From the NCBI GenBank assembly GCA_008632985.1, contig QPGO01000041.1, positions 372,001 through 436,000 on the forward strand: 64,000 nucleotides of DNA. Reading direction: 5' to 3'. The position numbers and the translations under genes are program-made. Shown here in pieces: positions 21,198-48,664 of this stretch. Position 1 is the stretch's first letter. Each line of letters starts with the position of its first letter. The DNA comes from Psammoneis japonica (lineage: Eukaryota). Under the pieces are notes generated by a model. The model was not told the DNA's origin. It saw nothing but the letters and a program-made list of their open reading frames with translations, and did no database searches.

Positions 21198-23033
21198 GTG
21201 ACTTTGAACACCTCTGCTACTAGTCGTTTTTTCATTCTCCTTCACATGTCCATTAATACGGTTAGGTTCTTTAGACTGTATACTGAAGGAGTCGTTATCT
21301 ACAGTTTGGGCTTACTCTTGGTAAACGGGTTGACGTCCTTCCAGCTTCCGGCCCATCACAAATTTTATAAAAGTTCAGCAGTGTTTCAGTTTTTGCAAAT
21401 GTCAACCGAAACCAGTGAATGTACCCATAATATGGCTTCTGCAAAGAGCAAAAATGAAAGGATTGAAGCTAAAAAGGCACCGATCTACATTACGATTGGA
21501 CCGCCCTGTGCAGGAAAAACTACTTTTCTGCAGAAACTGAAAAACAAACACGAAGCGATGAAGGATATTGCATTAGACCATGAGTTGGATGTCTACGTGA
21601 CTGTTCCAACAAGGCTTTTCCTATTGCAGGGAAATTCAACACTTTCGGATGAAGATCAAGTCGTTTGGAATAGACGTATACAAGGCAAAACAGTTCAACA
21701 ACGCATTGAGGACTCATCAAATGCGGAATGCCGATTTATCCTGCAGCGCTTGGCAGGACAGCTTTCGGCGGATGAATTTCAAAAGCAGATTCAGTCTCTC
21801 TATGACGATCATTTTCGTCGCCAACAAGAGCGGAAGGGTCGCACCATGATTGGTTTCAACATTGAGACGAACCTAACTGCGGAAGCACCAATCACAAAAC
21901 ACCAACAGGAGCAACAAGAGCGAAACCTCCAGCGACAGCGTGATTTGAAAATGATTGGTGATACAATTGTAAAAGCTGTTGAGGAGCAGGTAGAACTGTC
22001 AAAAGAAAAACATAATTTCGCTGTGCCAGAGACCGTCGAATTGTTTGTTGTGGAGAGCTTGTTTCGACCTCATCCCCAAACCAATCAGACCGGCGTGGAA
22101 CATGCCGAAGCTCAATTTGGTAGGTATGCTACACAGAATGATACAATGGCCATTGCATGGGGCAACACCAATACGAGACCGCGGGAATACAAGACTGCGT
22201 TGCAAGTAGCGGCGTCCTGCCATCGTCCCGTCTACTTTGTGGTGCACTCCAGTACACAACTCGAGAGAAGAATCAAAGATGGACTCCTTTTGCCACATCA
22301 GCCACTCTTGTCTTTGATCACCCGCAACCTTCAAAGGATGCTTCGTACAGGCAAATTTATTCCAGCGTTATCCATTTTTGATTCCTCCAGTCGTATTGAC
22401 AACTTGCTTTCAAACGCCTTGAACGAGTTGGAAAGACCGTATCGAGAAGCGCAAAAGGAAGAGGAACCTGCAGCTACAGTGAGTGGCCAAGACGATGAGA
22501 AAACTTCAATAGTTAATGGCACGTCTGCCATGGATGAACCACTGTCATTCAGTAGCCTGCAGCTCAACACTGTGCTTTGTAAGATGGTTCACTTTCAAAT
22601 GAACCCGGACCGCACAGTCAGCCAACTTGAGACATCTCCAACAAAACGGCCATTTGATTCGGGAAACGGTTCTCGCTCTGTGCGGGGAAGATTTGGAGGA
22701 AGCAGCAATGGTCCTTCACATAAACAGAGAGGGCAACATGTACCAAATGATGGGTGGTATCAAGGCAACAGGGACAATCGTAGCTTTGGTGTTCCTCGAC
22801 GGGGTCAATACAATCCAAGGTTTCGCGGTCGCCGCGATCAACGACAATACCAGCGGTCCGATTACAATGCCGGTCGTGGTCATTCCGTTAACAATACAAG
22901 ATATCGACAAGACCGCTCGTTGCACTCACAACAGCAGAGGCCAACGCAACGTGATGAAACGAGACGATCATCAACTCATGCGAGAGCAAGTGATCCGCCA
23001 AGAGACGAGAATTCGACACGTACTCGTAGATAA
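21198..23033 (+). CDS. P-loop (AAA_33/kinase-like) protein with an R/G/Q-rich disordered tail
   Basis: 611-codon ORF, IYITIGPPCAGKTTF Walker A, AWGNTNTRPREY. True start probably Met at 21246 or later. Confidence 0.7.
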   Translation: MTLNTSATSRFFILLHMSINTVRFFRLYTEGVVIYSLGLLLVNGLTSFQLPAHHKFYKSSAVFQFLQMSTETSECTHNMASAKSKNERIEAKKAPIYITIGPPCAGKTTFLQKLKNKHEAMKDIALDHELDVYVTVPTRLFLLQGNSTLSDEDQVVWNRRIQGKTVQQRIEDSSNAECRFILQRLAGQLSADEFQKQIQSLYDDHFRRQQERKGRTMIGFNIETNLTAEAPITKHQQEQQERNLQRQRDLKMIGDTIVKAVEEQVELSKEKHNFAVPETVELFVVESLFRPHPQTNQTGVEHAEAQFGRYATQNDTMAIAWGNTNTRPREYKTALQVAASCHRPVYFVVHSSTQLERRIKDGLLLPHQPLLSLITRNLQRMLRTGKFIPALSIFDSSSRIDNLLSNALNELERPYREAQKEEEPAATVSGQDDEKTSIVNGTSAMDEPLSFSSLQLNTVLCKMVHFQMNPDRTVSQLETSPTKRPFDSGNGSRSVRGRFGGSSNGPSHKQRGQHVPNDGWYQGNRDNRSFGVPRRGQYNPRFRGRRDQRQYQRSDYNAGRGHSVNNTRYRQDRSLHSQQQRPTQRDETRRSSTHARASDPPRDENSTRTRR

Positions 23034-23617
23034 GGTAAGAGAGACTTCTTCTTTTCGATATCAGGTCTAGAGTAGAGTGCAGGTGTGGCGCAGTGCAATG
23101 AATTCGTGAAAACTATTTTCTCTATCTCTACACTGTACACACGGTGTATTAGCTACTCTCCCTATAGTAGATAGAGAGTACTGTAGAGAATCTAAACTAC
23201 CTTTGGCTGGATAAGAAGTGCTGATTCAATTCATTCTCATAAGTACTGCATGTAATATTGGGTATTACTTTTATATTATTTATGTTTGTCAATTGTTATT
23301 TGTACAGTACTGATAGAGTAGAAATGTCTTGATAAAGTTTTTTCGTTTTGTTCAATAAGTAATATTTGTCGATTAAAAAACGAGGGGTTAATGTAGTTTA
23401 GTGGGGCGATATAAGGGAGGGCTATAGACAATTCCACATCATTTTGTGAATTCGCTTCTCATAAAATAGTGCACATCCGATCGCATCTGAAAAGGCCAAA
23501 GGATTTGACTCTGTCGTCTTCTCGATAAAACGATGAGGTGACGCATTTTTAAGTGCGAAAACCGGATACGAAACACCTTCTCGTGGCATCAACGGTGCAC
23601 CAACTCTCTCTCTAGAA

Positions 23618-26927: not shown

Positions 26928-28223
26928 TTACAAATCCATCAAGAGCGGCATGTACAAGGCATCGTTACGGGCAAAGTCTTGCCTATCAATGTCTTTACAC
27001 AGGGACGCCACTTGAGAGACTTTGCATTCTTCCGTCGTGACTACAAAATCCGCCGCCATGCGATCGACAATTGGGTTTTGTAAAATGGAATGAATCGAAA
27101 CTCCATGCTTTTCCGCCAGTTCACCCATTTTTCGAATAATCCCCAAGGAATCCATGTAGGGGATACGAATGTAAAAGGGCGAACAAAAGTCGTGATCCAA
27201 GTCTATAGACGACTCGAGCGGGAAGGGATTGGTCACGGCTTGGTTTTGCGTCATGCGCAACACATCCGCCACGACGGAATTGGCCGTCGGGAAGCGTCCC
27301 GCACCGGGACCGGTATAACTGCACGTGCCCATGTTGGCCGACTTGATGGCCACCGCATTGCCACTGCCCTTGGCAGAAGCCAAGAGATGCGTCAGCGGGA
27401 CCATTTTGGGTGACACATAGACCGAGAGCGATCCATCGTGTTCGCCATACTTGGACATGCGAGCGGCCGTGCCGACGAGTTTAATGGTGCATCCCAACAA
27501 TTTGGCATACTCAAAGTCTACTGTCGATATGGAGGTAATGCCTCGGCAGGGTATTTGCTCCACATTTTCAATCGACGTGCCAAAGGCCAGTTTGGCCAAG
27601 ATGCAAATCTTGGCACGAACATCGTGTCCCTCGACATCGGCGGTTGGATCGGCTTCGGCATAGCCCAACTCTTGCGCTTCAGCCAGCACTTCTTCATAAT
27701 CAGCACCGCTTTCCATTTTGCCCAGCATGTAATTGGTAGTACCATTACAGATGCCCTCGACTTGATGAATCACATCACCCGTATAGCATGTCTGAAGGGT
27801 TTGAATGATAGGAATTCCCCCACACACGGCTGCTTCATAGGCAAATTTACCCTTACTCTGCTTGACTGCGTTTTGAATTTCCGTTAAATGCTCTGCAATC
27901 AACGCCTTGTTGGCCGTCACAACCGATTTGTTTTGTTTCAATGCTTCCAACACAACCGTCTTGGCCAACGTCGTTCCACCCATGACTTCCACGACGACAT
28001 CAATGGAATCATCCTTGAGAATGGAATTCACGTCGGTGACAAATTTCGATTGGGCATAGTCCAAGTGAAAACTCCGAGGTTTGCTCAAGTCACGGACACA
28101 AACCTTGGTCACGACACACGACGCGCTCTTGCGGCCCATGAGAATTTCATACACCCCACCACCCACCGTGCCGCCGCCGACGAGACCGATACGAAGAGGA
28201 CGACCGAGTGCTGAAGAAGACAT
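26928..28223 (-). CDS. hom: Homoserine dehydrogenase with C-terminal ACT domain
   Basis: GLVGGGTVGGG, VVTANKALIA, YEAAVCGGIPII, GICNGTTNYML, AQELGYAEADPTADVEGHD, GPGAGRFPTANSV. Confidence 0.95.
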   Translation of the reverse strand: MSSSALGRPLRIGLVGGGTVGGGVYEILMGRKSASCVVTKVCVRDLSKPRSFHLDYAQSKFVTDVNSILKDDSIDVVVEVMGGTTLAKTVVLEALKQNKSVVTANKALIAEHLTEIQNAVKQSKGKFAYEAAVCGGIPIIQTLQTCYTGDVIHQVEGICNGTTNYMLGKMESGADYEEVLAEAQELGYAEADPTADVEGHDVRAKICILAKLAFGTSIENVEQIPCRGITSISTVDFEYAKLLGCTIKLVGTAARMSKYGEHDGSLSVYVSPKMVPLTHLLASAKGSGNAVAIKSANMGTCSYTGPGAGRFPTANSVVADVLRMTQNQAVTNPFPLESSIDLDHDFCSPFYIRIPYMDSLGIIRKMGELAEKHGVSIHSILQNPIVDRMAADFVVTTEECKVSQVASLCKDIDRQDFARNDALYMPLLMDL

Positions 28224-28529
28224 GATGAGAACGTGATGAGAGTGATTGATGTGGTGTCAACAGGATTCGGCAGAAGTGTGAGGGTAGTATGATATAGGTA
28301 GGTAGTGAGGGTTCTGTCGTGATTGCCACCATGTACGCGATTTTGTACGGGAATTCTACGTAGCGGGTTACACGCGGATCTTGCGTGGGAGAAAGACAGA
28401 CGGTAATCAATTGCACGCTCGCCCTGCTGTATGAACCTCGCATCGATCGCGCGCGAACTAATCTCTGGCGGGGGTTTGTTTCGAGAGAACAACCCATTTT
28501 GGACGGCTCAGTCAATGTGATGTTCATTT

Positions 28530-31500
28530 ATTGGCATGCAAAATCTTCCCTTTGTGGAGCCTGCCCTTTGCTCCAAATGCAAGTTGAACACAAGATTTGC
28601 AGTCTTTTTCAGTGCGCTTGCCAGAGTTGTTTTGTCGTTCGTGTGCGCAATGAATGTGCGAGTGCGCATGTGCCACGCGAATGACAACAGACGATTTGTG
28701 CACCTCTGGTGTTTGCCTTGTGTGCGCAGCAGGGGGCTTTCAAAAGGCCGCATTTTCAGAGCAAGATGCCAGCCAGCAAGATGCCAGAAAGTGACCCCCC
28801 CACAAAAGAAAGGGAGTCTCCATGACCAGCGCTGCTGCAGCTTTGTGTGCAGCCTGACATCAAAGATGAGGCGGCTGCGGGAAAAGAAAAAATGAGCGGG
28901 AAAACTCTGGAGCCAATTTGCACTGGCCAAAGTGCTGGTGGTGGGCTGCTCTGCAGCTCTTTGCAATTTGGGAATCTGCAAGCCAGTGCCTGCCAGGCAG
29001 CCCAAAAGATTTTTTTGGAGTGCGCCCCCCCCAGCATCTGCCCGAGGGCAGGAGGCAGCATGGGAGAAAGACATTGGAGAAGAAAAAAAAGCCAAAATCC
29101 TTTGTTGTTGCTGGGTGTTGGACTCACAAGTCCCAAATCTCCAGGCTTGCTTTGAGTCTCTGCCAGTCTGGTGATTGTGGAGTTGCAGCACTCTGTGGAA
29201 TGAAGCGCACAGATTGACAGAATGTTTCAGCACAAATTCCGTGCCACCTCGCCCACCCCCGCCGCCGCCATGCACCGTTTGCTTGCCCCGTCAGTTCGGT
29301 GCTCGTCAACAAGTTGTCTTCCCCTCAAAACATGAGATCAAAGAAAATGGCATCCATGCCAGCTCCACGCTCCGCCACGCTGATGACCCACGCCCTTTCC
29401 CCACGCTGCATGATGTTGTTGTGTGGAGCGAGACGGGTGGTGAAAGGTTCTCAAAGAAAAAGTAAAGTCCTCTTCTGCGTTTTGAATTGGAAGTCAGCCA
29501 CCCCAGCTGCACCATCATGGGAGATGCTCCAAATGATGGTGGCATCCGGGCCATTGCCGATTTCCATGATTTCTTTGTGAAACAGAGCAACGATGGAATT
29601 GTCCTAAATCTGGATCTGTCTCACAATTGGATTTAGGAATCCAAAAAGGTGCTAGAGGAGACATCATCCTCCAGATGATGAGTCATGAGCGCAAAGAATG
29701 GAAAAGGCGAAAGCTGCAGATCTGTTTACATTGCAGTCGCAAATCCGTTGTCATGCCAGAGGAGCTGACGTTGGAGGAATTTTTGACTCTCCGTGTTGCC
29801 GCTCCATGTCTCCTGGAAGACTCAAATGCGTTTCATTCCGCAGTTCGTTTTCTGATTCTCGTGCAAATCGGACACTGTTGTCCACAAGAATTGAAGTGTG
29901 GAATGAATTTGAGCAGCCGTTGAGAATTTTCGTGTCCATGGAGAGATAAAAATACCTGGCTTTCAATGTCAGAATCTGCGCAAGTCAACTGATGTTGGAA
30001 ATTGTTGGATGGAGAGTGATGAAGAGAAGCATTTGGTTGATAAAGTGTTTGAACCGCTGATGGAGGCTGGTCTCGTCGGCAATGTCATCCGAGGTTCCAT
30101 GTTTTGCCAGGGTGAACCCAACTCTTCAGCAACGGGATCTGGCAACAAAACGAAAATGGTGGGAGAGATCAAGGCAACGCATGGCTTGCCCCTGCCAATG
30201 ACAGCGCAGGAATTGGCTGCGCAATGCAATGAAGCGAGAGCACTCATTGATGAATTTTGTAAAGAAAGGTCAGATGACCAGCGACGCCCCATGGGCTGGT
30301 CGCATGTGGGACACCCCATCTCACAGATTCTTGGATGCATGGTCCTCAACAATTGTCACCATGGTGTGCTGACTGGTGGAACAAGAACGCATTTTATTTT
30401 GCTGTCTGGGGATGCCGAGTCTGGCAAAGAGAAAGTCCGCATCAGTGACGCGTGGTTCATTGGGCAAGAAGGGCACCTCCATGTGTGGGCCTTCTTCTAC
30501 TCCATTGTGCGCGATGGCGTGCAACCAGACCTCGACAAGAGTGGGCTTGCTCAGGAGTGGCTTGAAGGGATGCAGGACAAACTGAAGAAGAGACCTCCTC
30601 CTCCGACCAATCAAGGGGCATCTAAACGAAAATTTCTTTTGCCGTTTGGTCGTTGGGTTTGGGGGGGAAGTCGAGACAGTTCAAAATCTTGGTCCTCGGC
30701 TACAAAGATCATCCCTGCGGTGACTCTCAGTGATTTTGAAGTGACTGGACCAATTGGATGTGGTCGTCGTGGGACCGCATTTAGTGGGAAGTGGAGTGGG
30801 GAAGTAATTGCACTTAAACTCTTTGACACTCACAAGAACAATGGCAGGGACGCTTGTGAGCGCGAGGTTAAGGCCCATGAGCATTTGAAAAAGGCATGGG
30901 GTCGACTTGTTCCGACACCAAAATTCATTGCCGAAGCTTTTGGTGTGATCTATTTTGGAATGCAAATGGCTGAGGAACCCCCACAACGGGCTCGTCTTGA
31001 AGATTGGGATGAAGTTTTGTGGGAGCTAGAGGAGACGCATGGTTTTCGTCATTTGGATGTGGGCGGTGATGAACGCGGGCCGAATTTTCGAAATCACATG
31101 ATGCTGCCTTACAAGTCCAAAATGGAGGAACATGAATTGCTGTGATTGGCACGATCTAAGCCATGTTTAAATTAGCAACAATGTCTTGAGCAGACCACAA
31201 ATCTAGCTGCTAGAGGGCAACTTCGAAGCGTGCGCAACGACATGATGATGTTGTGTGTTCGTGGTCACCACACAACGATTGCTTGACAACAAAATGTGGA
31301 GTCTCTTGTCTTGTGCAAACAATGAAGGGGTCCATGGGCAACCAACAAATGACAGTCTGACGTCCAAAAAGAGGATGCGACCTGTGCATTCCAAACTGTG
31401 AGTGAGGCAGACTCAAACTGCAGCAATCGTCTGTCTTTGTGCACATGGAGTGAAAGGAGAGTGCATTTTCTTTGTCTCCGATTTGACTCCATTGCCTTTG

Positions 31501-32731
31501 TTCTACAAGGAAAAAAGCCTCTGAACTTGCTCCCTTTTGATCCTCAGTTGACGGCAATTAGATTTTTGTTTTGTTTTGCCCTGGCACAAAAGTCCACTTT
31601 GCCAAAACACCAGAGAGCTCTGGCAGTTGTGACGGACCACTTGCAGCAATCATGGTGCTGCATGCACAAGGAAGCTCTGATGAGATTCTCAAAACAGGAT
31701 TTGTTGCCACACTGCCACAAAATGAGAATTTTTCTTCCCAAGCCAGCACACTGTCAAGGTGGGTCAGCAGTGCGCCGGCCCACAAACTCAGAAGGTGGGT
31801 GATGTGCAGTGTGCCAAGTTGCTTTTGTGTGTTCTGAGTGACTGCAATGAAAAGAACCCACTGCCCCCAGCTGGTGCTCTGAAGCAATGGAAGAAACATG
31901 TGGCAAGGACAAAAATGGAAAATGACACACTGCTCCTCTCCTCATTCCAACTGAACAAACAAGTCATCCAACCTGTCACAAAAGCATGTGCAGCAGCCAC
32001 CAAAAAAGCTGGTGGCCACATGCCCAACTGTCGTTTGGCACCAAAAAAGTTGAGCCTCGTTTTCCCGAGGCTGGTCACTCAAGAACAAGTGTGGCAGTGT
32101 GCTGCTGTGTGCAAGAATGCCAGCCAGCCAACTCCCCCTCTGTCCAACAAGTCCCAAGGCTTTGTGCACCTCAACTGCAGCAGGAACAGCACAAAACATT
32201 GATGATCTCATTGCCCTGAAAGTCAACAGCAGCGTGGCTGGGGGCAGCCACTCTCTGACAAAACACCAGCAGCCCGCATCTTTTTTGTTGCCTTGTGGTG
32301 CAAAACCTCTGACAACTGCAATTGGCCTTTTAATGGAAACATGATCCAGACAATGTCACAACGTCCAATCAAGTTTTCCCATGCCGTCCGCAGCACAAAT
32401 GGCTCTGCTCAGTTAAAAATGATGTGCTCTCCTCCTTGGTCGTGGGCGGAGGATGCTGGACCGATCAACAGGAATCTTTCGAAAATGACCCGTGACATAA
32501 AAAGCACAAAACAATTGTGGGGACGCCTGTAGAATCTGCACGTTTTTGCACTGAAACTGACATGTTCACACAATTTGTGCAAACAGACTTGCTTGACTGT
32601 CATCGGGTCAGGCGTTTTTGCAAATGTGCAGAGTATTGAAGAAAAATGCGCCTGATCAGGAAACGGTCAAGTCCATTTTTCGCAAAGGCTAAAATTCACT
32701 AAGGACAGACAGACAGACTTTTAATAATTAG
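28530..32731. other. TpA-depleted block (CpG partly retained)
   Basis: Very few TA in 28550-29450 and 31213-32400. Contains the kinase pseudogene. Confidence 0.8.
29300..31160 (+). pseudogene. Protein kinase-like gene preceded by a possible PD-(D/E)xK nuclease-like region (Crinkler-type layout)
   Basis: IGCGRRGTAF, VIALKLFD, EREVKA, GFRHLDV kinase motifs. Upstream VGEIK. Stops and frameshifts 5' of 30009. Confidence 0.6.
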
Positions 32732-33054
32732 CTTGGTGCTGTTCTAGAGTAGAGAGTAGTACACATTTCTACGTAAATGACTCTATGTAGGTACAGCGCG
32801 ATCGAAAGATTGCCATTGTGCCCTGAGCCGTGTACGGTATGTTCGGGGGCGGCGGCGGGCGGGCATCGACGAACCTATTCTACTAGGAACCCTAGGCCTA
32901 CCATGAGCGGGCACGGCGGCCGCGCGCGCTCGCGGTGTGTGGCCAATTTGAAATCTGAAATGCACCGATCCAATCACCGCACACGCAATGCATTTCATTT
33001 TCATTGCACCGACCGAAGAGCCGTCGTCGGCAACAGCAGTGCACTCACTACCAC

Positions 33055-33835
33055 CATGATGTCATACTCGGCTCGCAAGCGCACCGCATCGACTTCGCAC
33101 CCTCGAGCCACCATGCCGAAAAAGGCAAGGAGCTCCGGTCCTCAATCATGGTGGATCGGCAGGCATCAAAAGCCTTTGCTCATTGACTGTCCCACTTGGA
33201 GAAGGACCAAGCCAAGGGCAGAGGAGCCCGCTGGAACCCTGTCTTGAAAAAGTGGTGCATTTCTGCCGACGTGTCCATCAAAGGTTTCGAAAAATGGCTG
33301 CCGAGAAACTCAAGTCTGCCCTTTGAGCTGCATGTCAAGGGCTGCATCGAAGGAGACACTCTCTCCTTGAAGTCAAATGTTGAAAAGTGGCATTGTTGGG
33401 GCTGTGGAAAGAAAGAGCATCACTCATGCAAAGATGGCAGGTCTCGTAAGAGTGATTGTTCAGAGTGCGATCGCCAAACCATCAGCATCTCCGAGCCTCC
33501 AACACTTGGGATGAACACGTCTTTGAGGTTGATGACAACCAGGGAAAGACTTTTTGGATGCCGAATTTTGCAGCGACGATTGTCTCGAGAAAGTCTTTCC
33601 CGTTCTCTTGCGAGGTTTCGAATGGTGGAAGTCCAACAAGAAACGCGACGCTGCTCTGGTTGTCCATTCCTGGTACGACGAGACAAAGAGTGTGTGGGCC
33701 AACAAGGTGTGGGAATGTCATGATTATGAACTTGCACTTGAAGCAATGGGATGGGAAGAAATCGGCTGGGCAGCGGGCCATTGGGCTCTAGGAGGTGCTC
33801 CACTTAAAAAAGACTCGGAGCAGATTAATGGTTGA
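33055..33835 (+). pseudogene. DUF5710-domain gene, frameshifted and TpA-poor
   Basis: EKDQAKGRGARWNPVLKKWCI fits DUF5710 (EKD.AK..GArWd...K.WY, with Y>C). CxxC motifs follow. Confidence 0.6.
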
Positions 33836-34223
33836 CCCCCCCTGGTGTTGCTTGTGTGTCTCAAGTGTCAAGAGATACTCAAGGAGTCTCTTTCATGTAA
33901 ATTTGTACTGTCACCTTTTTTTTAAGTTTTAGCATGTACGTTTAATTTTAAGGTACGTTTAATTTTAAGCAAACTCGCCTCCGATCACTTGCCAGCTCAG
34001 TACGTTTCAGACATTGCTGCAATATGGTGCTGCTCAAAGCTTTCTTGCAGAAACAAAATGGACAAAAAGACAGCCTATAAACCTACTTTACGCAACTAGG
34101 GCCCGACGTTCACTCCCTACGATTACGTGGCTACTCGGTCGTGCGCACAATCCGTACACCGACTCAACATCTTGACTCAACTCTCTCGCGCCACACCTCT
34201 AAGCAAAGACAAGGGCGCTTGTT

Positions 34224-34710
34224 CTAGTTATACTTGACTTGATCTCCAAACATGGTCATAAAATTCAAAGGTATAACAGATTCCCAGTCGACCTGAGCAT
34301 TCTGAAAGACATTGTTGGAGTCGACAATCTCGTGGACCAGCAAGCGGTCAGCCTCCTCGTCACGTTTCGCAATGATCGACTTCAATGTTTCCTCCAAAAC
34401 GTGCAACCTGCGAAGGGCTCTACTACACATTGCCACAGCCATTTGCGGGAAGCTTTACGCCAGAGGCTCCAATCCGGAGCTCTGCAATGATGTTCTCCAA
34501 ATCCTCGTTCATCCTATCACGAAAGGAGCTGCCCGTGAAAGGCTCACACTCGATTCGGGCATACGCATCTTCGAACCGGCAGAAATGGTTCCCTTTCAAG
34601 TCTTGCTTTGTCAAGCAGAGTTCAGCTACAGTGTTGTGATTTCAACTTGCTCTCACAAAAGTACACCCTTGCTTAACTCTAGCGAGAGGTGAAGCTCGAT
34701 CCGTCGACAT
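34224..34710 (-). CDS. Small hypothetical protein (frameshifted)
   Basis: Overlapping ORFs 34423-34614 and 34224-34442 with normal composition. Confidence 0.3.
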
Positions 34711-35076
34711 GCAAGCCAAAGCACTGAAGCGAGCCACAAATCATCTAGAGAGGGTAACTTCGAAGCGTGCGCGACGACCTGATGTCATGTCTTGGTGGTC
34801 ACCACACAATGATTACTACTGTAGATCGCAAAATGCCTTGAGTCTCTTGTCAATGAAGGGATCCATGCTGGGCAACCTATTATCAATGATCTAACATCCT
34901 ATTACCGGTACAACAGGATCGCGACGCGGGCATTCCAACTCGTGAATGAATCCGACTCAAGCCAGTCACGGGTTGGCATTTCGTGCGCGTAATCATGCGC
35001 GCGTGCCGATTTTGATCGTTGCACTGACCCTCGATCATTTTTGAATTTCACGCCGTTATCACAATATTGATATACG

Positions 35077-36426
35077 ATGACGACTCCCAAAGCAGCATCA
35101 ATGTTACACCTCCTCACTATGAAAGACGAACGTCAAGATGGTGATAACCCCGAAGAGCAAGAGAAGGCGGCTGGCGAGATTTACAAGCATTTGCGTGATG
35201 GAATCATCGAAGACCATCAGACTCTTGTCGACGTCGGATTACTAGAAGCAACCGTCGACGCGATGCATCAGGTAAATCAAAACGACCTCTTTGCTTTCAA
35301 GCTATTTGGGATCCTCGCTGAGTGCATGAGAAGAGAGGAGAGTTCTTCCAGTACAGATCGTATTCTTCAAAACGGCGGTGTCGAAGGCGTCCTTTTGGTC
35401 GCGGATTCTTTTCCATCCCACGAGTTTCTGCAGCAAACTGCACTAGGGCTTCTCTTTCTCTTCGTCAGTAAAAGCTCCAGAGGGATAGGCACCAACATTG
35501 CTGTGACAGTGATTGAGAGTACGGTCAAGCCCATGGAACGTCATACAGACTCCTCAGCAGTTTTCATTGCTGGATGCAATGCCATTCGCTACGCATTGAT
35601 TGCGCTTGATTTCCTTCTAGATGATGACAGGCTCCGTAAGCAATGCATCGATTGCATCTGTTACGGAATTCCAAAGCATTGGGACAATTCCGATTCTACG
35701 GAAGCTGGTTCGTTGGTGCTTCAATGCTTGGTAGGTTTGGCGGACGCCATGGCAATCATGTCCAAGCTTCAGCGTCCACGATTATTGTTTCAACTCGAAG
35801 TCCTTCGCAATTCTAGGGACTCTGCCAAGGCCGAAAAGGCGGCCTATGAACTTGTCACTGCTGCTTCTGCTGGAGTGCCGAGGGTTCTTGTTGACGGTGG
35901 TTTGTTCGAAGCAACCATTGCCGCCATGAATCGGCCTGGAAAGTCTCTAATCTTGTATTACCGTCTCTCCTACGTGCTTTATACTTGCGGTGATCAAGGA
36001 GAACGATACATGGAGCGAATCCTCCAGATGGGCGGCCTTGAGGCTGCTATTGGTCTGATGCGTTCCCGTCCGAATGACGAACGTGTTCACTTGTGCACGT
36101 TGATGCTGTTCGCTCCATGGGCAAGCCAAAAACAAGGTGAAGTAGCGACCTGCATTGTCGACAATACGGTCAAGGCAATGGAAGCCCACAAGGACTCGGC
36201 GATGCTCTACAAGCTGGGCTGTGTGGTGTTTCAAAGTTCTTGGCCTTCGCTTTCCACAATGGCCGCTGACAATGCCTCACTCTTTGAAAGAGTTGTAGAG
36301 TGCATTGAGGATGGAATGATCAATCATCTTAACGATGCGAGTGCACTGCAGCATGGGCGAGAGCTTCTTTTTAGATTGGTTGGTGAAGAGAACGTTCCTG
36401 AAGTGATTGATTTGACAGAATACTAG
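35077..36426 (+). CDS. Armadillo-like helical repeat protein (two ~220-aa units)
   Basis: 449-aa ORF. Repeated LVD.GL.EAT..AM ... IL..GG.E ... T.K.ME.H.DS units. Confidence 0.75.
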   Translation: MTTPKAASMLHLLTMKDERQDGDNPEEQEKAAGEIYKHLRDGIIEDHQTLVDVGLLEATVDAMHQVNQNDLFAFKLFGILAECMRREESSSSTDRILQNGGVEGVLLVADSFPSHEFLQQTALGLLFLFVSKSSRGIGTNIAVTVIESTVKPMERHTDSSAVFIAGCNAIRYALIALDFLLDDDRLRKQCIDCICYGIPKHWDNSDSTEAGSLVLQCLVGLADAMAIMSKLQRPRLLFQLEVLRNSRDSAKAEKAAYELVTAASAGVPRVLVDGGLFEATIAAMNRPGKSLILYYRLSYVLYTCGDQGERYMERILQMGGLEAAIGLMRSRPNDERVHLCTLMLFAPWASQKQGEVATCIVDNTVKAMEAHKDSAMLYKLGCVVFQSSWPSLSTMAADNASLFERVVECIEDGMINHLNDASALQHGRELLFRLVGEENVPEVIDLTEY

Positions 36427-37574
36427 TGTACCGTCTTTGCGATGGCCTTACTGCTTGAGGGTCTACTAGTTTCCATACTTTTTCGCACACACGCTTTATC
36501 ACACTGGCGCGCTTGTGTACGAACCGAAGCGAAGTGCAATACCACGTTGAGTCTATCGCATTACCAGGTATCGCTTTCCAGATAACGTACGGTACCTATG
36601 TTGTAGTCCGTAAGATATTAGAAGACCGTTGTGTCTATCAAAGTAGATACAGTATTTCAAATTCACTAGTAGAACCGAAAATCGGAAAGAGAGAGAGTGA
36701 TTTTGACTGCGGCGACAATAATTCATGGACAGAGAACAAGATTGTATGCATACCTTGAATCCCCGCCCCGAGTGGCTACGGAACGTTCTTTCTTGATGTA
36801 GGCGGGAACAGAATGATGCGTTGTATTTTAGCGAGAGAACCATCGTCAAATGTAGAACTGATCAAGGCTTTGCCCTCTTATTGTTGCAGTCAATCTGATC
36901 TGTATGGCATGCTATTTGAATGTCAGCTCAGAATTCTCCGCCTTGAATGCTCAACCTTTCCTTGTTACGATATTTTGGATCGATTTCCAATCAAAACATG
37001 GCGCATCTGCAAGCCTCGCAGGCAATCTTCCAACTCGATTAACCTTCTGCGATCACGCCCTCCAGAGTGTACACAGTGCCAGGCGCCATGATGTGAGATC
37101 GCTGATCGTCGCGGTTTTTGCTCACATTATTTCATTCGCATTGAACCCACCCGCCTACCGGTATCTTATCTATCTCATCCCTCATTTTTTCGTCTGGCCG
37201 TCCCGTCAATGCGCGATGTTTTGTGTCATCATTATTCATCACGCGCACTCCACACGCTCACAATCATGATGACATGTGAATGCATTCCGCAAAAGAGCGT
37301 CAAATGCGCCATGCACTACCCATAATTCACTTTGACATATCACTGTAATGATTCGCGTTGACCAAAGCAGTAGTGGCTTTTCAAACGCCATTTCGTTGCT
37401 TGCGGCGGCGGCACTGATGAGTTGATGAGTGAGCGAGCCTGCGCGAAGATTGTGCGCGCGGATGTGGCTTGAGACTCGTGAATGAATCGATCGTTGAGAG
37501 TCACGAGCTTCCTGGATGGCGCGGCGCGGCGATCCATCACTTTTTTTTTTGCAGCAACGATCGGCGCGACGACA

Positions 37575-39531
37575 ATGACGACGACTCCTCCAACCGCAAA
37601 CACTGCGACTCAACTCCTTTCTGCGTTGGATGAGCTCCGTAATCCGACGAGCCTCAAGAATACGCAAGTGCGGCGAAGGAAATATGCAAAGCGATCGTCA
37701 GCGGTAGCATTCCGGAGACTCTTGTCGATGCCGGGTTAGTCGAAGCAGTCGTCAATGCCATGAAGCGGGATGGATATGCTCCACGCTTTTATGTTAGACT
37801 CTGTTGGATCCTTTCTGACTGTATGGATGGTGGGGAGGGATCCACGTACGTCGACCAAGCTTTAGAAAACGGTGCTCTCCAAGCAGTCATTGATCTCATG
37901 GAAAGGTTTTCCACGAGCGAGGACATGCAGGCTGCTGCTTTGGGTCTTTTCAATATTTTTAGCGAGAAAAGCACAATCCAAACGAAGAAAGATATTGTGA
38001 CTACCATTGTCGAAAATACAATCAAGGTCATGGAAAATTACAAAGATTCGCCCGCCATCTTTTCCGTGGCATGCGACGTGATGCACACCGCGTTCGAAGC
38101 ACGTGGCTACGGTATGGAAGACGAAAAGCTCGTTGAGAAGTTTGAGGGCCTTATTTCGTACGGAATGTCGAAATATTCAAGTGACGCGATTATACAGGAA
38201 AGCGGTGGATTCTTGCTTTTGTGTTTGACAGCCCTACCACACCTCGTTTCTCAGATAGAAAAGATCCGGTCTCCGTCTTGCGATGAAAGCGAAATGCAGA
38301 CAGCGCTCGAAGAGATCATGGACGCAGTTTCGGCGGGGTTGTCACAGCCTCTTGTCAACGCTGGAGTGATTGAGACTGTTGTTGGTGCCATGAAAAAGGA
38401 AGGACACACTTCTGAAGCCTACCAGCTACTTTGCGGAGTACTTGCAAGGTTAATGAGCCGCGACAACGGCAAGGCGTACGCTAAACAGATTCTCGATGAG
38501 GGAGGTCTTGAAGGCATGTTTTGCATCGCGGATCGCTTGGCAACGGACGAGATGGTCCAGCGAGCCATGATGGGGCTTTTTCTTTGTTGTCTGAAACGTG
38601 TCGATACATCACGAGGCCAAGAAATCGCACCTGCCATGATCCCCATAGCCGCTACTTTTCACGTCGCATAACTGGATCCTCCGCCGACGATACCAAGCTC
38701 TTTGACGAGTGTGTCAACTGCATCTTGTGCGTTGTTTCGCAGCGCTGCCGTGAAGAAGGTGCCGCGGAAATGGGTAGACTTCTTCTCGAGGGCTTGGTAG
38801 GCTCGGATGTTGCCAAAGATATGATTTCGGATATCATACAAGGACACCTCCTTTCTCAATTGGGTGTACTACGCAATCCATCACGTGATGCGGTAGAGGC
38901 GCTAAAGGCAGCCAAAGTCCTTTCCAGCGCTGTCTCTGAGAAGAACGAGAAGTTTACTTTAGCCCTTGTTGACGCTGGCTTATTCGATACAATCATCAGC
39001 GCCATTAATGAGTCAAGGCTGACGCCAGGGTTCCTTTGCGCTCTCTGTTCCATTTTGGTTGCTTGTATGTATCAGAGTGAGGCGCGAGAAAAGTATACCG
39101 ACGAAATCCTGCAAAAGGGTGGCCTTGAAAGCACCGTTGCCTTGATGCGTTTGTTTCCCAGCAGCGAGCGAGTTCAGATTGCTGCTATTGAGATGCTCTA
39201 TTGTTTTGCCAGCAAGAAGCACGCTGACATTGCGCCCACCATTCTCGAGCATACGGTAAATGCAACGGAATCCGTCAAGGACTCGGCACACCTTTACTCA
39301 ACGGCGTGCCTTGTGCTTGAGAATGCATTGAAATCGATTGGATGGTGCGTCGAAGACGAGGAGCTTTTTCACAGAGTCGTAAAGTGTGTTTGGGACGGAG
39401 TGTCAAGGCATCCTCATGACGAGGAAGCGCAGGAGACGGGTCGAGCGATGCTTCATTGCCTTGTTGATGGAGAGACGGCCGGTGAAATGATTGCCAAATC
39501 TGAACGACTTCAACGTGCCAATGCGGCCTAA
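37575..39531 (+). CDS. Armadillo-like repeat protein, tandem paralog of 35077-36426
   Basis: Same repeat unit about three times (LVDAGL.., GGLE.., T.K.ME.YKDS). Frameshifts near 37680 and 38650. Confidence 0.7.
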
Positions 39532-40216
39532 AGCAGTGCTGCTTGAAAACGCTTCTTGTCATGCACTTCACTGAAGAGATTACTTGGCGTGGGACGACGG
39601 GACTATCCTTTTATTTGTACAGCTCTAGTTTGCTCGAAACGCCGTGTTTGAGAGTCGTAACTGGCGGTCCCACTTCCCAGGACGACAGTCGCAATCGAGC
39701 TATAGAAGGAGCGGGTTGTTCTGCCCACAATGAGTCGTGAATACTAGTATATTCAGTCTACATAGTATTTTTCTGAACGGTACTATTCTCTCTAGCTAGA
39801 GGAGTTCCGTATGAATATGTCATAGCTTCCACTATCCATCCAATAGAGTACGGTAGGAGCGAAGGTAGCTGCAAACTAGCCGAGTCAACCAGATATGCCG
39901 TAAGCCAGCCTAGAGCTAGCATGTAGCATTCTCGTCTGAGAGATGGAGTTGCGGCTGGAGGGCTGCAAGTCAAAAGAACGCAACAAACCAGAGACCGATG
40001 CTAATAGTAGCTACTCTCTAGTAGCACTGACGACCGATGATATGATTCGACAAAACTGCCCATTTGGACGCTTTCATTTTCGACTTTTATAAAAAATATT
40101 CATGCCCGAATAAAATTAGATATACAACAAATTCAAAAATTTCGAAAACTGCCCATTTGGACTGTTTTTTGCGTTTGCATTCATCCTCGATTTTTATCTT
40201 TTTGTGCGAAGACGCA

Positions 40217-41832
40217 ATGACGCCGACAGTTCGTCCTCGTTGCTGCGCTGCCATGCTCTTGTTTCAACTACTGTTGTTTTTCGTGGCTGTTGCTGCTTCA
40301 GAAGATGTTCCTGAAGGAAATGGCATTGATGGGTGCCTCAAAGGTGACGACACGGACGAGTGTACCGCTTTCCAGCAAGAAGACGACGACGAGATTCTTC
40401 AAGGAGATGAAGGGACAGAAATATCGGAGGAAGTGTTGTGGGATGATTATGACCCAGAGCAATGCCAGCGACTGGCTGACAAGGGGAGATGCAACGAAGA
40501 TCCATCATTAATGTTGCATCACTGTAGCCGAACGTGCTTGCTGCATACAGAAGATCTCTTAGCATACGGATACTACAAACGAAACATCAGCGACGAAGTG
40601 AAAGAAGAATGTGAAGATACATATTGGTCCGAGCTTGGCGATACATGCGAGGAAGATGCCGCCGATAGCGAAAGGAAACCATGCATTTATGATCCCGAAA
40701 GCATGGCAGAGTGTGCGAAAACTTGCATGTACTGCATGCCCACGGGCTTTGAGCAAGTTGAATTTGACATTGGTGTGCCCCAAGTACTCGGAGAGGATGA
40801 TACCTTGATTGATGCTACCATTTCAGTACTGGACGAAACACTTCGTTACATGTCAGAACAAGTCATGAGGGACGACAAATATTCTCTTGTGCGCAGAGCT
40901 TGTCGTAATGAATATGAGCTCTGTTCCTATTGGGCAGCTCAGGGCTTTTGTTCAAACGAAGAAGATAGGTACGATGAACTTGAAATGCTAGTGACATGTG
41001 GACCGGCCTGTCAATCATGCGAGATGCAAGATTTGCGTGTCCAATGCCCAATACCCGAGGACGCCGTGAATATATTGAAAGAGGGTGACTTGAATCGTTT
41101 GTTCGAACGTATTGTCGAGACGAGCGCAGACAAGAACAACAGTTATGAAGTAACGGTTCATTCGCGACCTGATCCGCATCCTTCCACTAGCAATGATACA
41201 ATTATTGGTGGGCCTTGGGTTGTTAGCATTAGAAATTTTCTCACGGATGAAGAATGTGATCACTTGATTGAGATGGGTCGTCAAAGGGGATACGAGCAGT
41301 CTAGGTTACAGGCAGAGAAGGCTGAAGATCCAGAAGATTATGACCCGGAAAACCTTGCGTATCGAACATCCACCAACACGTGGTGTGAGGACGAATGCTA
41401 CACACACCCCGTTCTCGTCGTGTTATACAAAAAATTGTGGACCTCACAGGAGTGCCCGATTCTCACTCAGAGTACTTGCAGTTACTCAAGTACGAGCCGA
41501 ATCAGTTTTATTTGAATCACCACGATGGTACTCACACTGACAAATGGCTGCCTCAGGGGCCCAGGATCATCACGGTGTTTGTGTACTTGAATAACGTGGA
41601 AGAGGGTGGCGAAACGTCCCTTACGAAACTCAAAGAAGGTCAGCCACCCTTGATTGTCCAGCCTGAGCGTGGAAAGGCCTTGATATGGCCCAGCGTTTTG
41701 AACGATAAACCTGATACAATCGACAGTAGGACGTTTCACAGCGCTTTGCAAGTGATAAAGGGCCACAAATACGGCGCAAACTCATGGCTGAGACTACGCG
41801 ACTACAAGAATGCACCGACATGTTTTTATTAA
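40217..41832 (+). CDS. P4H: Prolyl 4-hydroxylase (2OG-Fe(II)) with ShK domains, secreted
   Basis: Signal peptide. ShK-like C..WA..G.C...M...C...C..C. NFLTDEECDHLI, RTSTNTW, HHD, YLNNVEEGGET, H..L.V..G.KY..N.W. Frameshift near 41410. Confidence 0.9.
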
Positions 41833-41899
41833 CCCGTTAGAAAATGAAATACAGTAAAAGAAGAGCTCATGATCGTTGTGCTCTAGAGTCATAACCGAG

Positions 41900-43485
41900 A
41901 ACTACAACTAGACAAACCCGGCTGGTGGTGGTAGTGACAGACGAAAGTAAACAAAAAAGCGATTCGCGATACACCCAAAACCCGAAATCAAGCCTCCGCC
42001 ATGTGTTCCGCTTCTCGTTAACGCGTGCCATTTGACGCCTAGGCCTAAAGCATCCATTCACTCGTCACTGTGCCCACCTTTAATGCTTCTCAAGCTTCAA
42101 AGTTGAGATGACCAAAAGTAAACTGCGGAATGATGACTCAGAGGGAGCGAGCTCGGAAGGGAAACAACAGGACGGTGCCATTCACATGAACTCCTGAATC
42201 CCAGTTCCAACTCTCGCCACGTTTTCATCTTCAATTTTCTTCCAATTCACCAGGCTGGCAACAATGCGTCGATTTGGTGTGCTGTCTTGATCCTTCATAA
42301 TTCGTCAAGCTTGAGGAACTCGGAGGAAAAGAAGGCCTGGGATCACTTGATGAAGATTTGGGTAGACTTGTCGGGGGGCATTGGACTCTCCTTAAACCGA
42401 CCTACAGTACGAATGGAGGAGCACTCGCCTAAAGGAAACATCTAGAGCATGGCTGAAGCGGAAGAGAGCCTCTTCGATTTTTTTGTGCGGTCCGCTATGC
42501 ATTGTGTTCAGTTGTCCGTGGCTCGGTAGGAAGAAGACTTGGCTTTAGTCAGGGGTTACAGAAAGAGCGCAACAAGAAGCGGCGCCTTGGTGACCTTGAT
42601 GGCAACGACAAGAACATGATTGCGACCATGACAGCAATATGGGAGAAAGGATTCTTGGGTATGGAAAGGACCTGTAGCTTTTTGTTTGGTGGCTTGGTGA
42701 CAATCGGCATTCTAGAATATGTTTGTGTCTCTCCCTTGTCGTGGTCCGCGAAACAATTCTAACAATTGTAACCACTCGGAATACACAGATAATCGCCATT
42801 CTGTTTCAATTCGAAGCAACTTTAAAAAGCACTTCATACATTTCTCTTTTTTACGGGACTCTTGTCGAGCGAATACTCTTCTTTTGCGATTCCTGACTGG
42901 TCGTCGCTGATCAAACGAATGGATTTCAACAACTTGTTGCTCTGATGACGTCGGAGATTTGCCTGCGCCGTCGCCACGCTGCGACGCGGTTGTAATCTTT
43001 TGTTTTCTCTGTTTTTGCAATGGCTCGAGTCGACTGCTTGTGCTTTTTGGATGATTATTTGCTCTGACTATTTGTGGTTTGCGCAATTCTTTAACTTTGT
43101 TGCTTCGGGCGTGTTTCGGAGCCCCTTTCTTGACAATACAATCTCCAGTTTTCTGATCCATTCTTATTTGCTCCGAGAAACTCAGACCACTACCAATATT
43201 ATGTTCTCCCAACACTCCAGTGACATATTTTTCATACCACTCTGGATCCTCCTGTTGCACCTTGCGGTGAATATTTCCCAGCAGGGTCGTTTCGGCATTG
43301 TCGTCTTGATCGTTGCTGTAGAAAATCTTGGAGCGATGCCTTTTCTTGTAACAACATTTTCTTATGGAGTGATTATTGTTTGAGGCATATGCAAAGCCAC
43401 ATGTCGTCGCGTGTATGGTGATGGATGAAGCACGGTCTTGCAATGTTAACATGACGAGAGCTACTAGCGAAGGATCGAAATTCAT
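41900..43485 (-). CDS. Hypothetical protein, 3' structure uncertain
   Basis: 257-aa ORF with a signal-like start and EDPEWYEKYV. Further coding-like fragments downstream. Confidence 0.4.
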
Positions 43486-45119
43486 GGCTCAACCTCCAGC
43501 CCGTACGGACGAAACCTGCTTTTACAATTCAACAACAGATTCTCCATGGGAAAGCTAACGACATGTCGTTAGGCCTAGACTTTGGTGATGTGGGATCATG
43601 CAGAGCGTGTATTGTTGAGCATAGCAGAAGTCTATTACAAGTTGTGTAATGTGTGTTGTTGTGTTGGAAGTTGGAAGCGATTATCGGGTAATTTTTGATG
43701 GTTGTGATTGGTGCGATCTTTCGCGCGCACATGCAAACTGAAAACGGCTGCTATGAGACCCAGCAGGCCTTAAGTAACTTGAAAATGGCATGGCAGGCGC
43801 GCTCCGGATGAGGGTACAGACCATCACCGCGGTGACAACACGGAGAAATTGTCAAAAACCCGCCGGAGCCGACGATGACATTGACGCGGTAGATAAGGTG
43901 TCTAAACATTCGTCGTTTCTTGGACCATTACAACAGAAGCTCTATTAGACCCTCATCGATATACCGTTGTAATCATCCATTCGGAGACGTACAGTTTGGC
44001 GAGAAATATTGAAACATACCGTTTCGCTTTGTCGTGACGCCATGTTGCATGCAGACGACGCATCAACTCACCATTTGCCGGATTTTCGGCACCCACTGAG
44101 TTAAAGTCCGAGTTTATTAAAAGACAAGTAAGTTGAAAATCAAAATGGTGTTATCAATGTATCCGAGGCTCACCACTTGTTGTCTCAATCAACTTTCTTG
44201 CGGATGCAGCCAACTCTCACTGTCTTACCTAGCATGAGCACATCGACGAATCCAAAATCGTCGTCACATCGTCAAACCCATTTGATCAATGGTATTGACC
44301 AGGCGATTATTTTTGAAGACTTTGATAAAGCAGCTGTAATGCATTCAGCCAAGTATTCTTGAATGGGAGAGAGTCGGACGGATGAGAGTGAAAATGAAGA
44401 ATGAAGTTGGCGTACGGTTCAAGAAAAAAGCAGTCAAATATGGTTGGCAAAATATTCTGATGCTGTTATTCTATAGAATGATAAATAATAGTGAATAGAG
44501 CTTCTCCCTGGCTTGTATATACTCTAGATTGATCGCAAAGACACAAATGTCAAATCTGAAATAGAAAAGTGCGGCTTGTAAATGAGTATTCGTGGATTGC
44601 TTCACCCATTTATAGCATGAAAGAGGTCAGATATAGTTGTCACGAGGTCAAAGACAAATTAGAAAGTAGAACATTGCCATAAAATCGGTTTGTGATGATG
44701 TTATCATCTAATCTCGGTGTCGAGAACACCTCATCGTACAGCGAGTCACGTGTTTTCAATCCCGTATGACCCACTCGACTCAAAATTTTGGTAGAATTAG
44801 CTAGACTTTGACCCCAGCTAGAGCCACAAATTACACAAGATATGAGCATTATCAGTCTCATACTCTTTAAACAGATACCTTGCGAGAATGTAATAGGTAT
44901 GTATTGTTCGTGGTATCTGGTATTTCAAAACAGAACTAACTTTTCGTGGAGCACCTTTATCACACGGGCAAGTGCGAGAGTCAACATTCAGTGATTGGTT
45001 AGCAACTAACGTTCACCCCCATTCTAGGCCTCCAAAAGTGTGCTGAACTACGTATCTGCATAATGTTAGTCGATCGAGGTGGGTATTTGGTTAAAAACGG
45101 GGGGTTAATTTTTACACGT

Positions 45120-46469: not shown

Positions 46470-46517
<48 letters not shown>

Positions 46518-47750: not shown

Positions 47751-48066
47751 GTGCTTTATCCTCCATTTTGCTGGTTGTTTCTTTTGTTTTTTCGAGATTG
47801 CGTACATCATCGGTTGACACTTTCATTACTTTTTGTGAAATGTTGTAATGAGAAGGCAATCCAGTCGAAGGCTTTGGAATTGAAGAAATGCCATAATGGA
47901 AATCAGATGTTAGTATGGCTTACGAAACAAAAAGATAACTCCCCACACGATGAATCGATCGAAATCCCCCTTGTTTCTGCACAGCACTACATAGAATAGA
48001 CTTTTGATTTTATGATCTTCTTAATCTTTCTATGGTATACCAGGTAATGGCTGACTTCCTCAAACT

Positions 48067-48565
48067 TCAAAAGTGTCGGTCGAATCGTCGCTGGCCGCCC
48101 ATTCCAAATCCGACCACGAGGAAACAATCGTAGCCAACTTCACTCACGTCTGATGTGTAAGCAATGTCATATGCCAGTTCGTTTTCCAACCGCTGGCGTT
48201 GAAAAAGAGTATACAAAACTTGCTCCACCACATCACTGATTCCACCTCGTTTCTTGATTTTCTTGTGAATCGTAAGAGCCACGAGTAGTCCAACAAGGCA
48301 ATACGACGATAGACCAAATCTGTGACGAGGCGAGTGCATACGATTACCCTGACTCTGTTCATCACTTTCGGCAGGAAGGGCTCGACCCGACTTTTCATCA
48401 TCGTTTCTCTTCTACGCTGAAGCAACTTTCGAAAGCACCACTGTGCTTTGCGATTCTTTTGTCATTGTCATTACGATTGAGCCTGTCTGCTGAGGCAAAG
48501 AGTTCTCTGTTGAAGGTTTTCGTGGAACAAGAAAAATCGCATTTGGGAATTGATCCAAGGACGAC
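48067..48565 (-). pseudogene. 5'-truncated, frameshifted copy of the 52843-53547 gene
   Basis: Shares SSLDQFP.AI.LVPRK and EQVLYTL.QR.RLENELAYDIAYTSDVSEVGY, split over several frames. Confidence 0.8.
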
Positions 48566-48664
48566 GCTATGCAGTCTAAGACGTCTCGTCGTTTTATCAA
48601 CGAGAGACGATCTGTTATCGGTGATCATCATCGTCTCTTTGCGTTGTTGCCATGCAGTTTTGCT

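Follow-up and report, generated by a model that had tools for sequence, protein, structure and literature searches.

Results

A mosaic of TpA-depleted and normal domains

The window, by which we mean the whole stretch analysed here, comprises 64,000 nt of Psammoneis japonica contig QPGO01000041.1 (372,001-436,000, forward strand), and all positions below are window coordinates. Its genes and repeats lie in a mosaic of domains that differ in their content of the dinucleotide TpA (TA), and a repeat of ~230 bp has one copy (copy A, 31188-31420, forward strand) inside a domain almost free of TA and another (copy B, 34727-34963, forward strand) in a domain of normal composition. Judged by its sequence, the window is diatom nuclear DNA. 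The open reading frame (ORF) at 26928-28223 on the reverse strand encodes a homoserine dehydrogenase with 60-73% identity to diatom proteins (from Leptocylindrus, Minutocellus, Seminavis, Cyclotella, Thalassiosira and others). Gaps of unspecified bases are present in the window, which suggests a short-read scaffold.

Over the window as a whole the observed/expected ratio is 0.38 for TA and 1.38-1.39 for CA and TG. A two-state hidden Markov model on TA divides it into depleted (D) and normal (N) domains. The 10 D segments together span 26.4 kb, or 41% of the window, with ratios of 0.07 for TA, 0.39 for CG, 1.66 for CA and 1.69 for TG, against 0.59, 1.01, 1.18 and 1.17 in the nine N segments. 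GC content is about equal in the two classes (0.47-0.53 by segment), and the combined deficit of TA and CG approximately matches the surplus of CA and TG. Depletion of TA and of CG is coupled (r = 0.76 in 400-bp windows), with 38 of the 42 400-bp windows that have TA below 0.1 also having CG below 0.5. D domains reach 8 kb in length and include intergenic DNA.

Copy A lies in the D domain 28460-32633, where 32 TA and 135 CG occur in 4174 bp; the domain starts ~240 bp upstream of the ORF for homoserine dehydrogenase. Its deepest section, at 31213-32497, has 4 TA where 53.6 are expected, and the open frames of this core gave no Pfam match. The N domain at 33674-45113, which carries copy B and several long ORFs, has 483 TA and 647 CG in 11440 bp. 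The two D-domain ORFs have TA ratios of 0.08-0.16 in all three phases, and N domains also contain TA-rich non-coding DNA, for example copy B itself and 23001-23500 (52 TA). A genome-wide mutation bias was considered and rejected, as the nine long N-domain ORFs keep TA at 0.58 and CG at 0.90 across codon positions 3-1.

The depleted sequence is also carried by contigs assembled from k-mers of public reads (three runs, one sample), which were compared with the window at a likeness of at least 80%. Contigs of run X1, with a word depth of ~51-57, cover the D core from 30897 to 32051 with 12 other letters and bridge the D/N boundaries at 28001-28706 and 33258-36813. Across 31341-32342, in the deep core, word depth is ~51-54. 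The run contigs thus argue against an assembly error.

A repeat with one copy nearly free of TpA

Copy A lies directly 3' of a gene relic (P0121, described below), where the TA-free core has its left boundary, and forms the opening 230 bp of the deepest section of its D domain. It has two TAs within its first 25 bp, both in CTAG contexts, and none beyond 31212. The counts of the first-pass annotation, which had drawn attention to the pair, stand: 31213-31417 of copy A (205 bp) has no TA and eight CG, and 34751-34960 of copy B (210 bp) has 10 TA and 13 CG. Copy B as a whole contains 11 TA and 14 CG. At the N-domain TA density of 4.17%, the probability of finding no TA in 205 bp is 1.7e-4.

The homology of the copies is likewise secure. 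By blastn the copies share 73% identity across 159 bp (E 1.8e-16), and a more sensitive search extends this to 68% over 242 columns (31195-31416 against 34734-34960, E 2e-24), with four conserved blocks visible in the alignment. When both copies are rewritten in a purine/pyrimidine alphabet, which we used for self-search so that conversion of TA or CG no longer hides similarity, identity rises to 84.7% over 183 columns. In a global alignment 171 columns are identical, while transitions account for 29, transversions for 17 and gaps for 36; given the 17 transversions, the pair is old.

Six of copy B's 11 TAs fall in ungapped columns and five lie opposite gaps. At the six, copy A reads TG three times, CA once and AA twice, and the three substitutions named in the first-pass annotation (GGGTAAC>GGGCAAC, GATTAC>GATTGC and TCTAAC>TCTGAC) are all present. 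That annotation had also held CpG loss to be without direction here, which the alignment does not bear out: over its range copy A has 8 CG to copy B's 14, and CG in B is CA or TG in A at four sites, with the reverse at two, although these numbers are too small to weigh. Since the TA and CA/TG content of copy B is ordinary for an N domain, no gain of TA in B is needed to explain the difference. The best reading is that the loss is derived and took place in situ, and that copy A lost its TAs by virtue of its position inside a D domain, copy B lying outside.

Several searches were made for further copies. The proposed partial match near 37475-37510 proved to be a 15-bp exact match (E 0.89), which we attribute to chance, and a third copy there is rejected. 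Among the matches listed, the run contigs offer no second contig for copy B, whose word depth of ~55 is the single-contig level, and near copy A only diverged paralogs of the neighbouring gene. Rfam gave no match with E up to 1 across 28000-38000, so the repeat is not a known RNA. Self-search of the window in the purine/pyrimidine alphabet and by tblastx did not yield a further pair with one copy in a D and the other in an N domain; the pairing of 42518-42617 with 45992-46085 in the search for hidden homology scored barely above noise.

Conserved tyrosines give the change a direction

By itself the pair is weak evidence and cannot prove that TA became CA or TG, as it offers four informative sites and lacks an outgroup copy. 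A clearer polarity comes from genes caught within D domains. The relic P0121, from an unnamed gene family, occupies 29544-31145 on the forward strand, with an ORF of 410 aa at 29913-31142, and has four diverged homologs with 37-51% identity. At the nine columns where at least three of the four homologs have tyrosine, P0121 has histidine (CAY, where Y is a pyrimidine) at five, cysteine (TGY) at three and tyrosine at one. It otherwise keeps 157 of 225 conserved columns, including all seven tryptophans and all five methionines, and conserved arginine has become histidine (CAY) at three columns. With eight of its nine conserved tyrosines lost and the N-terminal third encoded in other frames, we read P0121, from its sequence, as a dead gene.

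The ORF P0122 shows the same pattern. It lies at 3802-5220 on the reverse strand, in the D domain 1-8179, and encodes 473 aa resembling a P-loop nucleoside triphosphatase, with a P-loop motif and a weak AAA_22 match. The database contains 80 relatives with E up to 0.001, of which 16 were compared. At the six columns where the majority have tyrosine, P0122 has cysteine twice, histidine three times, arginine once and tyrosine never, while keeping 81 of 139 consensus columns. Its single tyrosine in 473 aa amounts to 0.2%, as against 1.3-4.1% in the 16 relatives. Because tyrosines conserved in homologs read as histidine or cysteine in the D-domain copies, TA is the ancestral state in D domains, and CA and TG are derived.

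Paralogs from the reads are in line with this. Diverged paralogous contigs of the public runs match 29.5-31.1 kb, and one paralogous run contig (~79% identity over 130 bp) has 3 TA, 12 CG and 16 CA or TG, where the window copy has 0, 6 and 23. A metagenome scan with the P0121 family returned one 1.3-kb locus at 29% identity. Relatives lacking tyrosine are found among the database matches only as short fragments, such as P0203 (143 aa), and are not conclusive for hypermutation. Pfam gave no match for nine homologs, and PHROGs none for four proteins; the five scanned relatives from the P0122 family had no Pfam match.

The P0122 ORF is bracketed, within the D domain, by a 126-bp direct repeat (3383-3508 and 5467-5589) with 79% identity, 10 transitions and 13 transversions. 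An N-domain ORF at 48665-49609 on the reverse strand is a distant paralog of the converted P0122 (25% identity, E 3e-8).

A young repeat converted after duplication, independently in each copy

The first-pass annotation had presented the A/B pair as the most direct evidence for conversion. Much stronger, alongside the tyrosine columns, is a young repeat within D-domain DNA, with copies at 7002-7109 and 7337-7446 on the forward strand. These share 101 identical columns and differ by seven transitions and no transversion. Six of the seven transitions make up three doublets in which TG in one copy stands against CA in the other; the remaining one is CG against TG. A TTTAAA is retained in both copies. 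A TG/CA doublet takes two adjacent transitions, and three of them in a pair without other change indicate that the ancestral dinucleotide was still TA or CG when the sequence was duplicated, and that conversion afterwards took its own course in each copy, with CA or TG as a random outcome. It ran to completion in this pair while background divergence is zero in the 101 other columns. As far as these sequences tell, conversion acts after duplication, on each copy independently and fast relative to background substitution.

Doublets of the same kind separate the window from ~99% identical run contigs, at 28987-28988 and 29723-29724, and TG/CG, CA/CG and TA/TG differences adjoin doublets in the comparison of the window with near-identical contigs. 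The 99% identical direct repeat formed by 7778-8139 and 8629-8989 differs by two changes between CG and CA and one indel. Its copies flank one N (position 8141) as well as a 433-bp island rich in TA (8180-8612), and may represent a scaffold or haplotype duplication.

As a control, a repeat pair with both copies of normal composition (47702-48577 and 52515-53374, 84% identity) was examined in the same way. Its changes are symmetric, TA and CA/TG being exchanged five times in one direction and eight in the other, and CG and CA/TG six times in each. The claim made for copy A, that TA has become CA or TG in depleted DNA, draws its support mainly from outside the A/B pair.

The D domains 45114-47756 and 50085-52610 end exactly where these two control copies begin, and the D parts to the left of the copies are mutually non-homologous even in the purine/pyrimidine alphabet.

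Both strands are converted, in a defined sequence context

CA and TG are intermixed along the D domains, with a runs-test |z| of at most 1.5 in all seven that exceed 1 kb, and strand-coherent editing is rejected on this result. Within both P0121 and P0122, changes of tyrosine to histidine (T>C on the coding strand) and of tyrosine to cysteine (A>G) occur side by side. Taken together, the intermixing and the presence of both tyrosine changes within single genes indicate that the two strands are converted at random.

The TAs that survive in D domains do so in particular contexts. TTAA accounts for 30 of 119 residual TAs in D, compared with 75 of 1558 TAs in N (Fisher test, 2e-12), and RTAY (R being a purine) for 6 of 119 compared with 488 of 1558 (1e-11). 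All 16 NTAN words are fitted by a multiplicative model (chi2 12.3, 12 degrees of freedom) in which the strands are hit independently and escape on each is decided solely by the base 5' of the T (read from the opposite strand, the base 3' of the A). Retention per strand is 0.12 when this base is A, 0.19 for G, 0.36 for C and 0.75 for T. For CG, the corresponding retention by flank is 0.53 for A, 0.89 for G, 0.70 for C and 0.53 for T. Conversion is strand-symmetric, proceeds site by site, depends on context and is confined to domains.

Other features of the window

Among the 139 stop-to-stop frames of at least 90 aa that lie mostly in D domains, the 75 of at least 113 aa were submitted to Pfam. 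These yielded the weak AAA_22 match of P0122 and one DUF5710 match, with no transposon, reverse transcriptase or integrase domain among them. The DUF5710 match (E 7.9e-8) belongs to a forward-strand ORF at 33187-33720, in a segment that is TA-poor (3 in 774 bp) and has kept its CG (48).

At the right-hand border of the D domain containing copy A, 32343-33010 has summed contig word depths of 3255 and 989, against ~55 elsewhere, together with many indel variants, although depth does not equate to copy number. Its part within the D domain (32343-32633) is TA-poor, with 3 TA, and is followed by a TA-rich island at 32634-32899 (21 TA in 266 bp). This looks like a high-copy element at the D/N border. 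Further to the right, TA-rich intergenic DNA of the N domain contains a perfect tandem duplication of 17 bp in two copies (33936-33969). Beyond copy B, the forward-strand ORFs at 35077-36426, 37760-38671 and 38521-39531 are paralogs with weak ARM/LRR-like Pfam matches and ~30-39% amino acid identity in tblastx segments.

Discussion

A model for domain-wide conversion of TpA

We consider it probable, with good confidence, that the D domains are the product of a DNA hypermutation targeted to domains. Within them, TpA would be changed to CpA or TpG, a transition from A:T to G:C that may fall on either strand. CpG would also be changed to TpG or CpA, more slowly or less completely, leaving CpA and TpG as the end state. 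Such a process would probably be enzymatic, modifying or deaminating bases in double-stranded DNA and directed to chromatin that is silenced or repeated, and would be a functional analogue of fungal repeat-induced point mutation (RIP), with the opposite polarity at TpA. A change from A:T to G:C is beyond the cytosine deamination on which RIP relies, and two other routes fit. The A of TpA could be deaminated to hypoxanthine, which would be read as G. Alternatively, the 5-methyl group of the T in TpA could be oxidised; 5-hydroxymethyluracil and 5-formyluracil, the products this would give, are both able to pair with G. The accompanying loss of CpG might come from deamination of 5-methylcytosine in the same marked domains, or else the thymine-oxidation route could act on 5-methylcytosine at CpG as well, giving one rule for 5-methylpyrimidines followed by a purine.

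Whether this amounts to a dedicated RIP-like genome defence with a new chemistry in this diatom is a separate and more tentative matter; we regard it as a real possibility that falls somewhat short of an even case. Under such a defence, an enzyme recruited to duplicated or silenced chromatin would attack the palindromic TpA on either strand and continue until only CpA and TpG were left, erasing RTAY and sparing TTAA, and with it would go tyrosine codons, TAA and TAG stops and TA-rich signals.

Several observations weigh against the hypermutation reading and must be set beside its support. The A/B pair yields just four sites of TA>CA/TG, two of copy B's TAs align with AA, the copies are separated by 17 transversions, and no outgroup copy of the repeat was found by self-search of the window or among the matches listed for run contigs. 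The short segments 32900-33673 and 57336-57886 are depleted of TA and have kept their CG. The flank preference at CG, where A and T flanks are most lost and G protects, is unlike that at TA, so that a single enzyme for both would be conjecture. If repetition is what draws the process, the tandem ARM-like paralogs at 35077-39531 nevertheless sit unconverted in an N domain, and the deep core has no extra contig among the matches listed. The run contigs come from one sample, perhaps that of the assembly itself, and do not provide independent proof of its sequence. Finally, the outgroup homologs may include paralogs from the same organism, although tyrosines common to diverged family members still polarise the change even where this is so.

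Alternative explanations

A slow decay of long-marked chromatin, carrying 5-methylcytosine at CpG and some mark at TpA, is unlikely. Marked dinucleotides would then mutate at a somewhat raised rate and N domains would be unmarked islands, in the manner of vertebrate CpG loss outside CpG islands. The coupling of TA and CG loss would follow from it, as would the existence of partly converted blocks: the P0121 region stands at 0.08-0.16 for TA and 0.5-0.8 for CG, with deeper loss in the core, and by rough arithmetic the ratio of TA to CG log-decay is ~2-4 in both blocks, which would fit two constant rates. The flank pattern at CG, with A/T-flanked sites most lost and GCGC kept, also resembles 5-methylcytosine deamination. 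What such decay does not accommodate is the 7002/7337 pair, where the susceptible sites are all converted, three of them differently, with no change in 101 other columns; the rates at TA and CG would have to be far beyond the roughly tenfold excess typical of CpG. The occurrence of TG/CA doublets between ~99% identical sequences, in the window and the run, raises the same difficulty. The opposite polarity, in which a TA-free state is ancestral and RIP-type C>T change at CpA has added TA to copy B and other normal DNA, is very improbable. The three named differences between A and B are what RIP would be expected to leave in B, and diatoms carry DNMT4 enzymes that are related to fungal RID and are described as of unknown function (PMC9998398). 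RIP in copy B is nonetheless rejected by the tyrosine columns, where diverged homologs have tyrosine and D copies histidine or cysteine, and by the N-N pair, whose changes have no direction. The TA and CA/TG content of copy B, moreover, matches that of all normal DNA, conserved genes included, and a TA ratio of 0.07 is implausible as the ancestral state of genes.

It is also highly unlikely that the D sequences are retro-copies hyper-edited from A to inosine in RNA by an ADAR- or ADAT-like enzyme preferring a 5' U, before reverse transcription. UA is a favoured ADAR context for A>G and edited retro-copies are known in animals, yet here sites of CA and of TG are interspersed without strand coherence, and tyrosine has gone to both histidine and cysteine within one gene. 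The preferred base 3' of the A is T or C over G and far over A, where ADAR prefers G. Nor do 75 D frames of at least 113 aa contain a reverse transcriptase or other transposable-element domain, and the domains extend for up to 8 kb with intergenic DNA included. Selection that purges TA and CG because the domains are acted on by a nuclease, by RNA decay or by a transposase that targets TA is no more credible than a reversed polarity. TTAA and TA are transposon target sites, and UpA and CpG are reported to be disfavoured by selection in some RNAs and viruses; against this, the strength of selection per site in non-coding DNA would probably be too weak for a ratio of 0.07, and selection would have to override conserved tyrosines in two genes and produce exact TG/CA doublets without other change. 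The multiplicative fit per strand is, by comparison, what independent events on the two strands predict. Least credible of all, and barely worth entertaining, is an artefact in which base-calling or assembly errors at modified bases turn TA and CG into CA and TG. Some long-read base-callers do miscall methylated motifs systematically, and the library type of the runs is not on record. The k-mer contigs nevertheless carry D sequence and bridge its borders at an even word depth (~51-57), the gaps in the window would be typical of short-read scaffolds, and numerous transversions and indels also set the D copies apart from related sequences.

Relation to known systems

The hypermutation proposed here resembles RIP, as known from Neurospora and other fungi, in its dense transitions within sharp-edged blocks, its killing of genes and its dinucleotide context, and, for the 7002/7337 pair, in acting after duplication on each copy independently. 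It differs in kind from RIP, a C>T change mostly of CpA to TpA by which TA increases and GC falls; in D domains it is TpA that is lost, GC is approximately constant and the A/B pair has one copy without conversion. RIP further depends on a RID/DNMT4 enzyme and takes place before meiosis. In place of the RIP signature of excess TA and deficient CA and TG, D domains have TA at 0.07 and CA and TG at 1.66-1.69, and homologs point to TA>CA/TG. On duplication the observations are mixed: the 7002/7337 pair was converted independently after it arose and diverged paralogous contigs match 29.5-31.1 kb, but no extra contig is listed for the deep core and copy B is unconverted.

With the decay of methylated CpG in vertebrates, plants and methylated diatom repeats, the D domains share a confined loss of CG to TG and CA, islands that coincide with active genes, and the greatest loss at A/T-flanked CG. 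The CG ratio of 0.39 is of this kind. Plain CpG decay, however, leaves other dinucleotides untouched and spares TpA, whereas here TA loss is the deeper of the two (0.07) and is found without CG loss in 32900-33673 and 57336-57886. Retro-copies hyper-edited by ADAR or ADAT share the A>G change and the preference for a 5' T or U, but RNA-level editing is strand-coherent and favours a 3' G; in D domains both strands are changed (|z| at most 1.5), the preference is T, C > G >> A, and retroelement features are absent, the 75 D frames having no reverse transcriptase or integrase domain. An assembly or base-calling artefact would be absent from the k-mer contigs, and contigs of run X1 do contain D sequence at normal depth, although they may not be independent of the assembly.

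Two further systems bear a more distant likeness. Very-short-patch repair shapes the frequencies of CTAG and CCAGG in E. coli; there, too, repair or modification favours T>C at a short motif and depletes a word containing TA, but the effect is weak, spread over the whole genome and bound to Dcm sites, and does not erase the word almost completely by domain. In dinoflagellate DNA, 5-hydroxymethyluracil is reported as enriched at TpA and TpC. This is a eukaryotic thymine modification that prefers TpA and whose oxidised base can pair with G, although TA-free domains are not reported there and it is not known in diatoms; the literature matches listed for 5-hydroxymethyluracil in diatoms all concern dinoflagellates. 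Full-text literature searches gave no report of domains with TA>CA/TG change, subscription journals being outside their coverage, and an apparent mention of TpA in PMC4504042 proved to be the word Tpase. Nor are we aware of any A:T>G:C hypermutation that acts on TpA across whole domains of nuclear DNA. The underlying phenomenon therefore looks new.

Significance

A consequence of this rule is that genes killed by it remain open. By the genetic code, TAY gives CAY or TGY, NTA gives NCA or NTG, and no stop arises where a TA spans two codons; among CG changes, CGA>TGA alone makes one. TA>CA/TG thus removes TAA and TAG and cannot create an in-frame stop, so that dead genes retain long frames (410 and 473 aa here), and long ORFs in D domains are not evidence of function. 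Gene finders will call such ORFs, for which low tyrosine with high histidine and cysteine provides a flag. In homology searches, a purine/pyrimidine alphabet recovers similarity hidden by conversion, as in the rise from 73% to 85% between copies A and B.

If real as a process, conversion at TpA would represent a second chemistry for mutational genome defence. A dedicated defence of this kind, if true, would stand beside RIP as its natural A:T>G:C counterpart, following a sequence rule of its own. The process would point to an enzyme able to convert A:T into G:C in double-stranded DNA within a defined context, which could be a tool of interest for base editing. For diatom biology, it would open a way to study chromatin states and the role of DNMT4-like genes.

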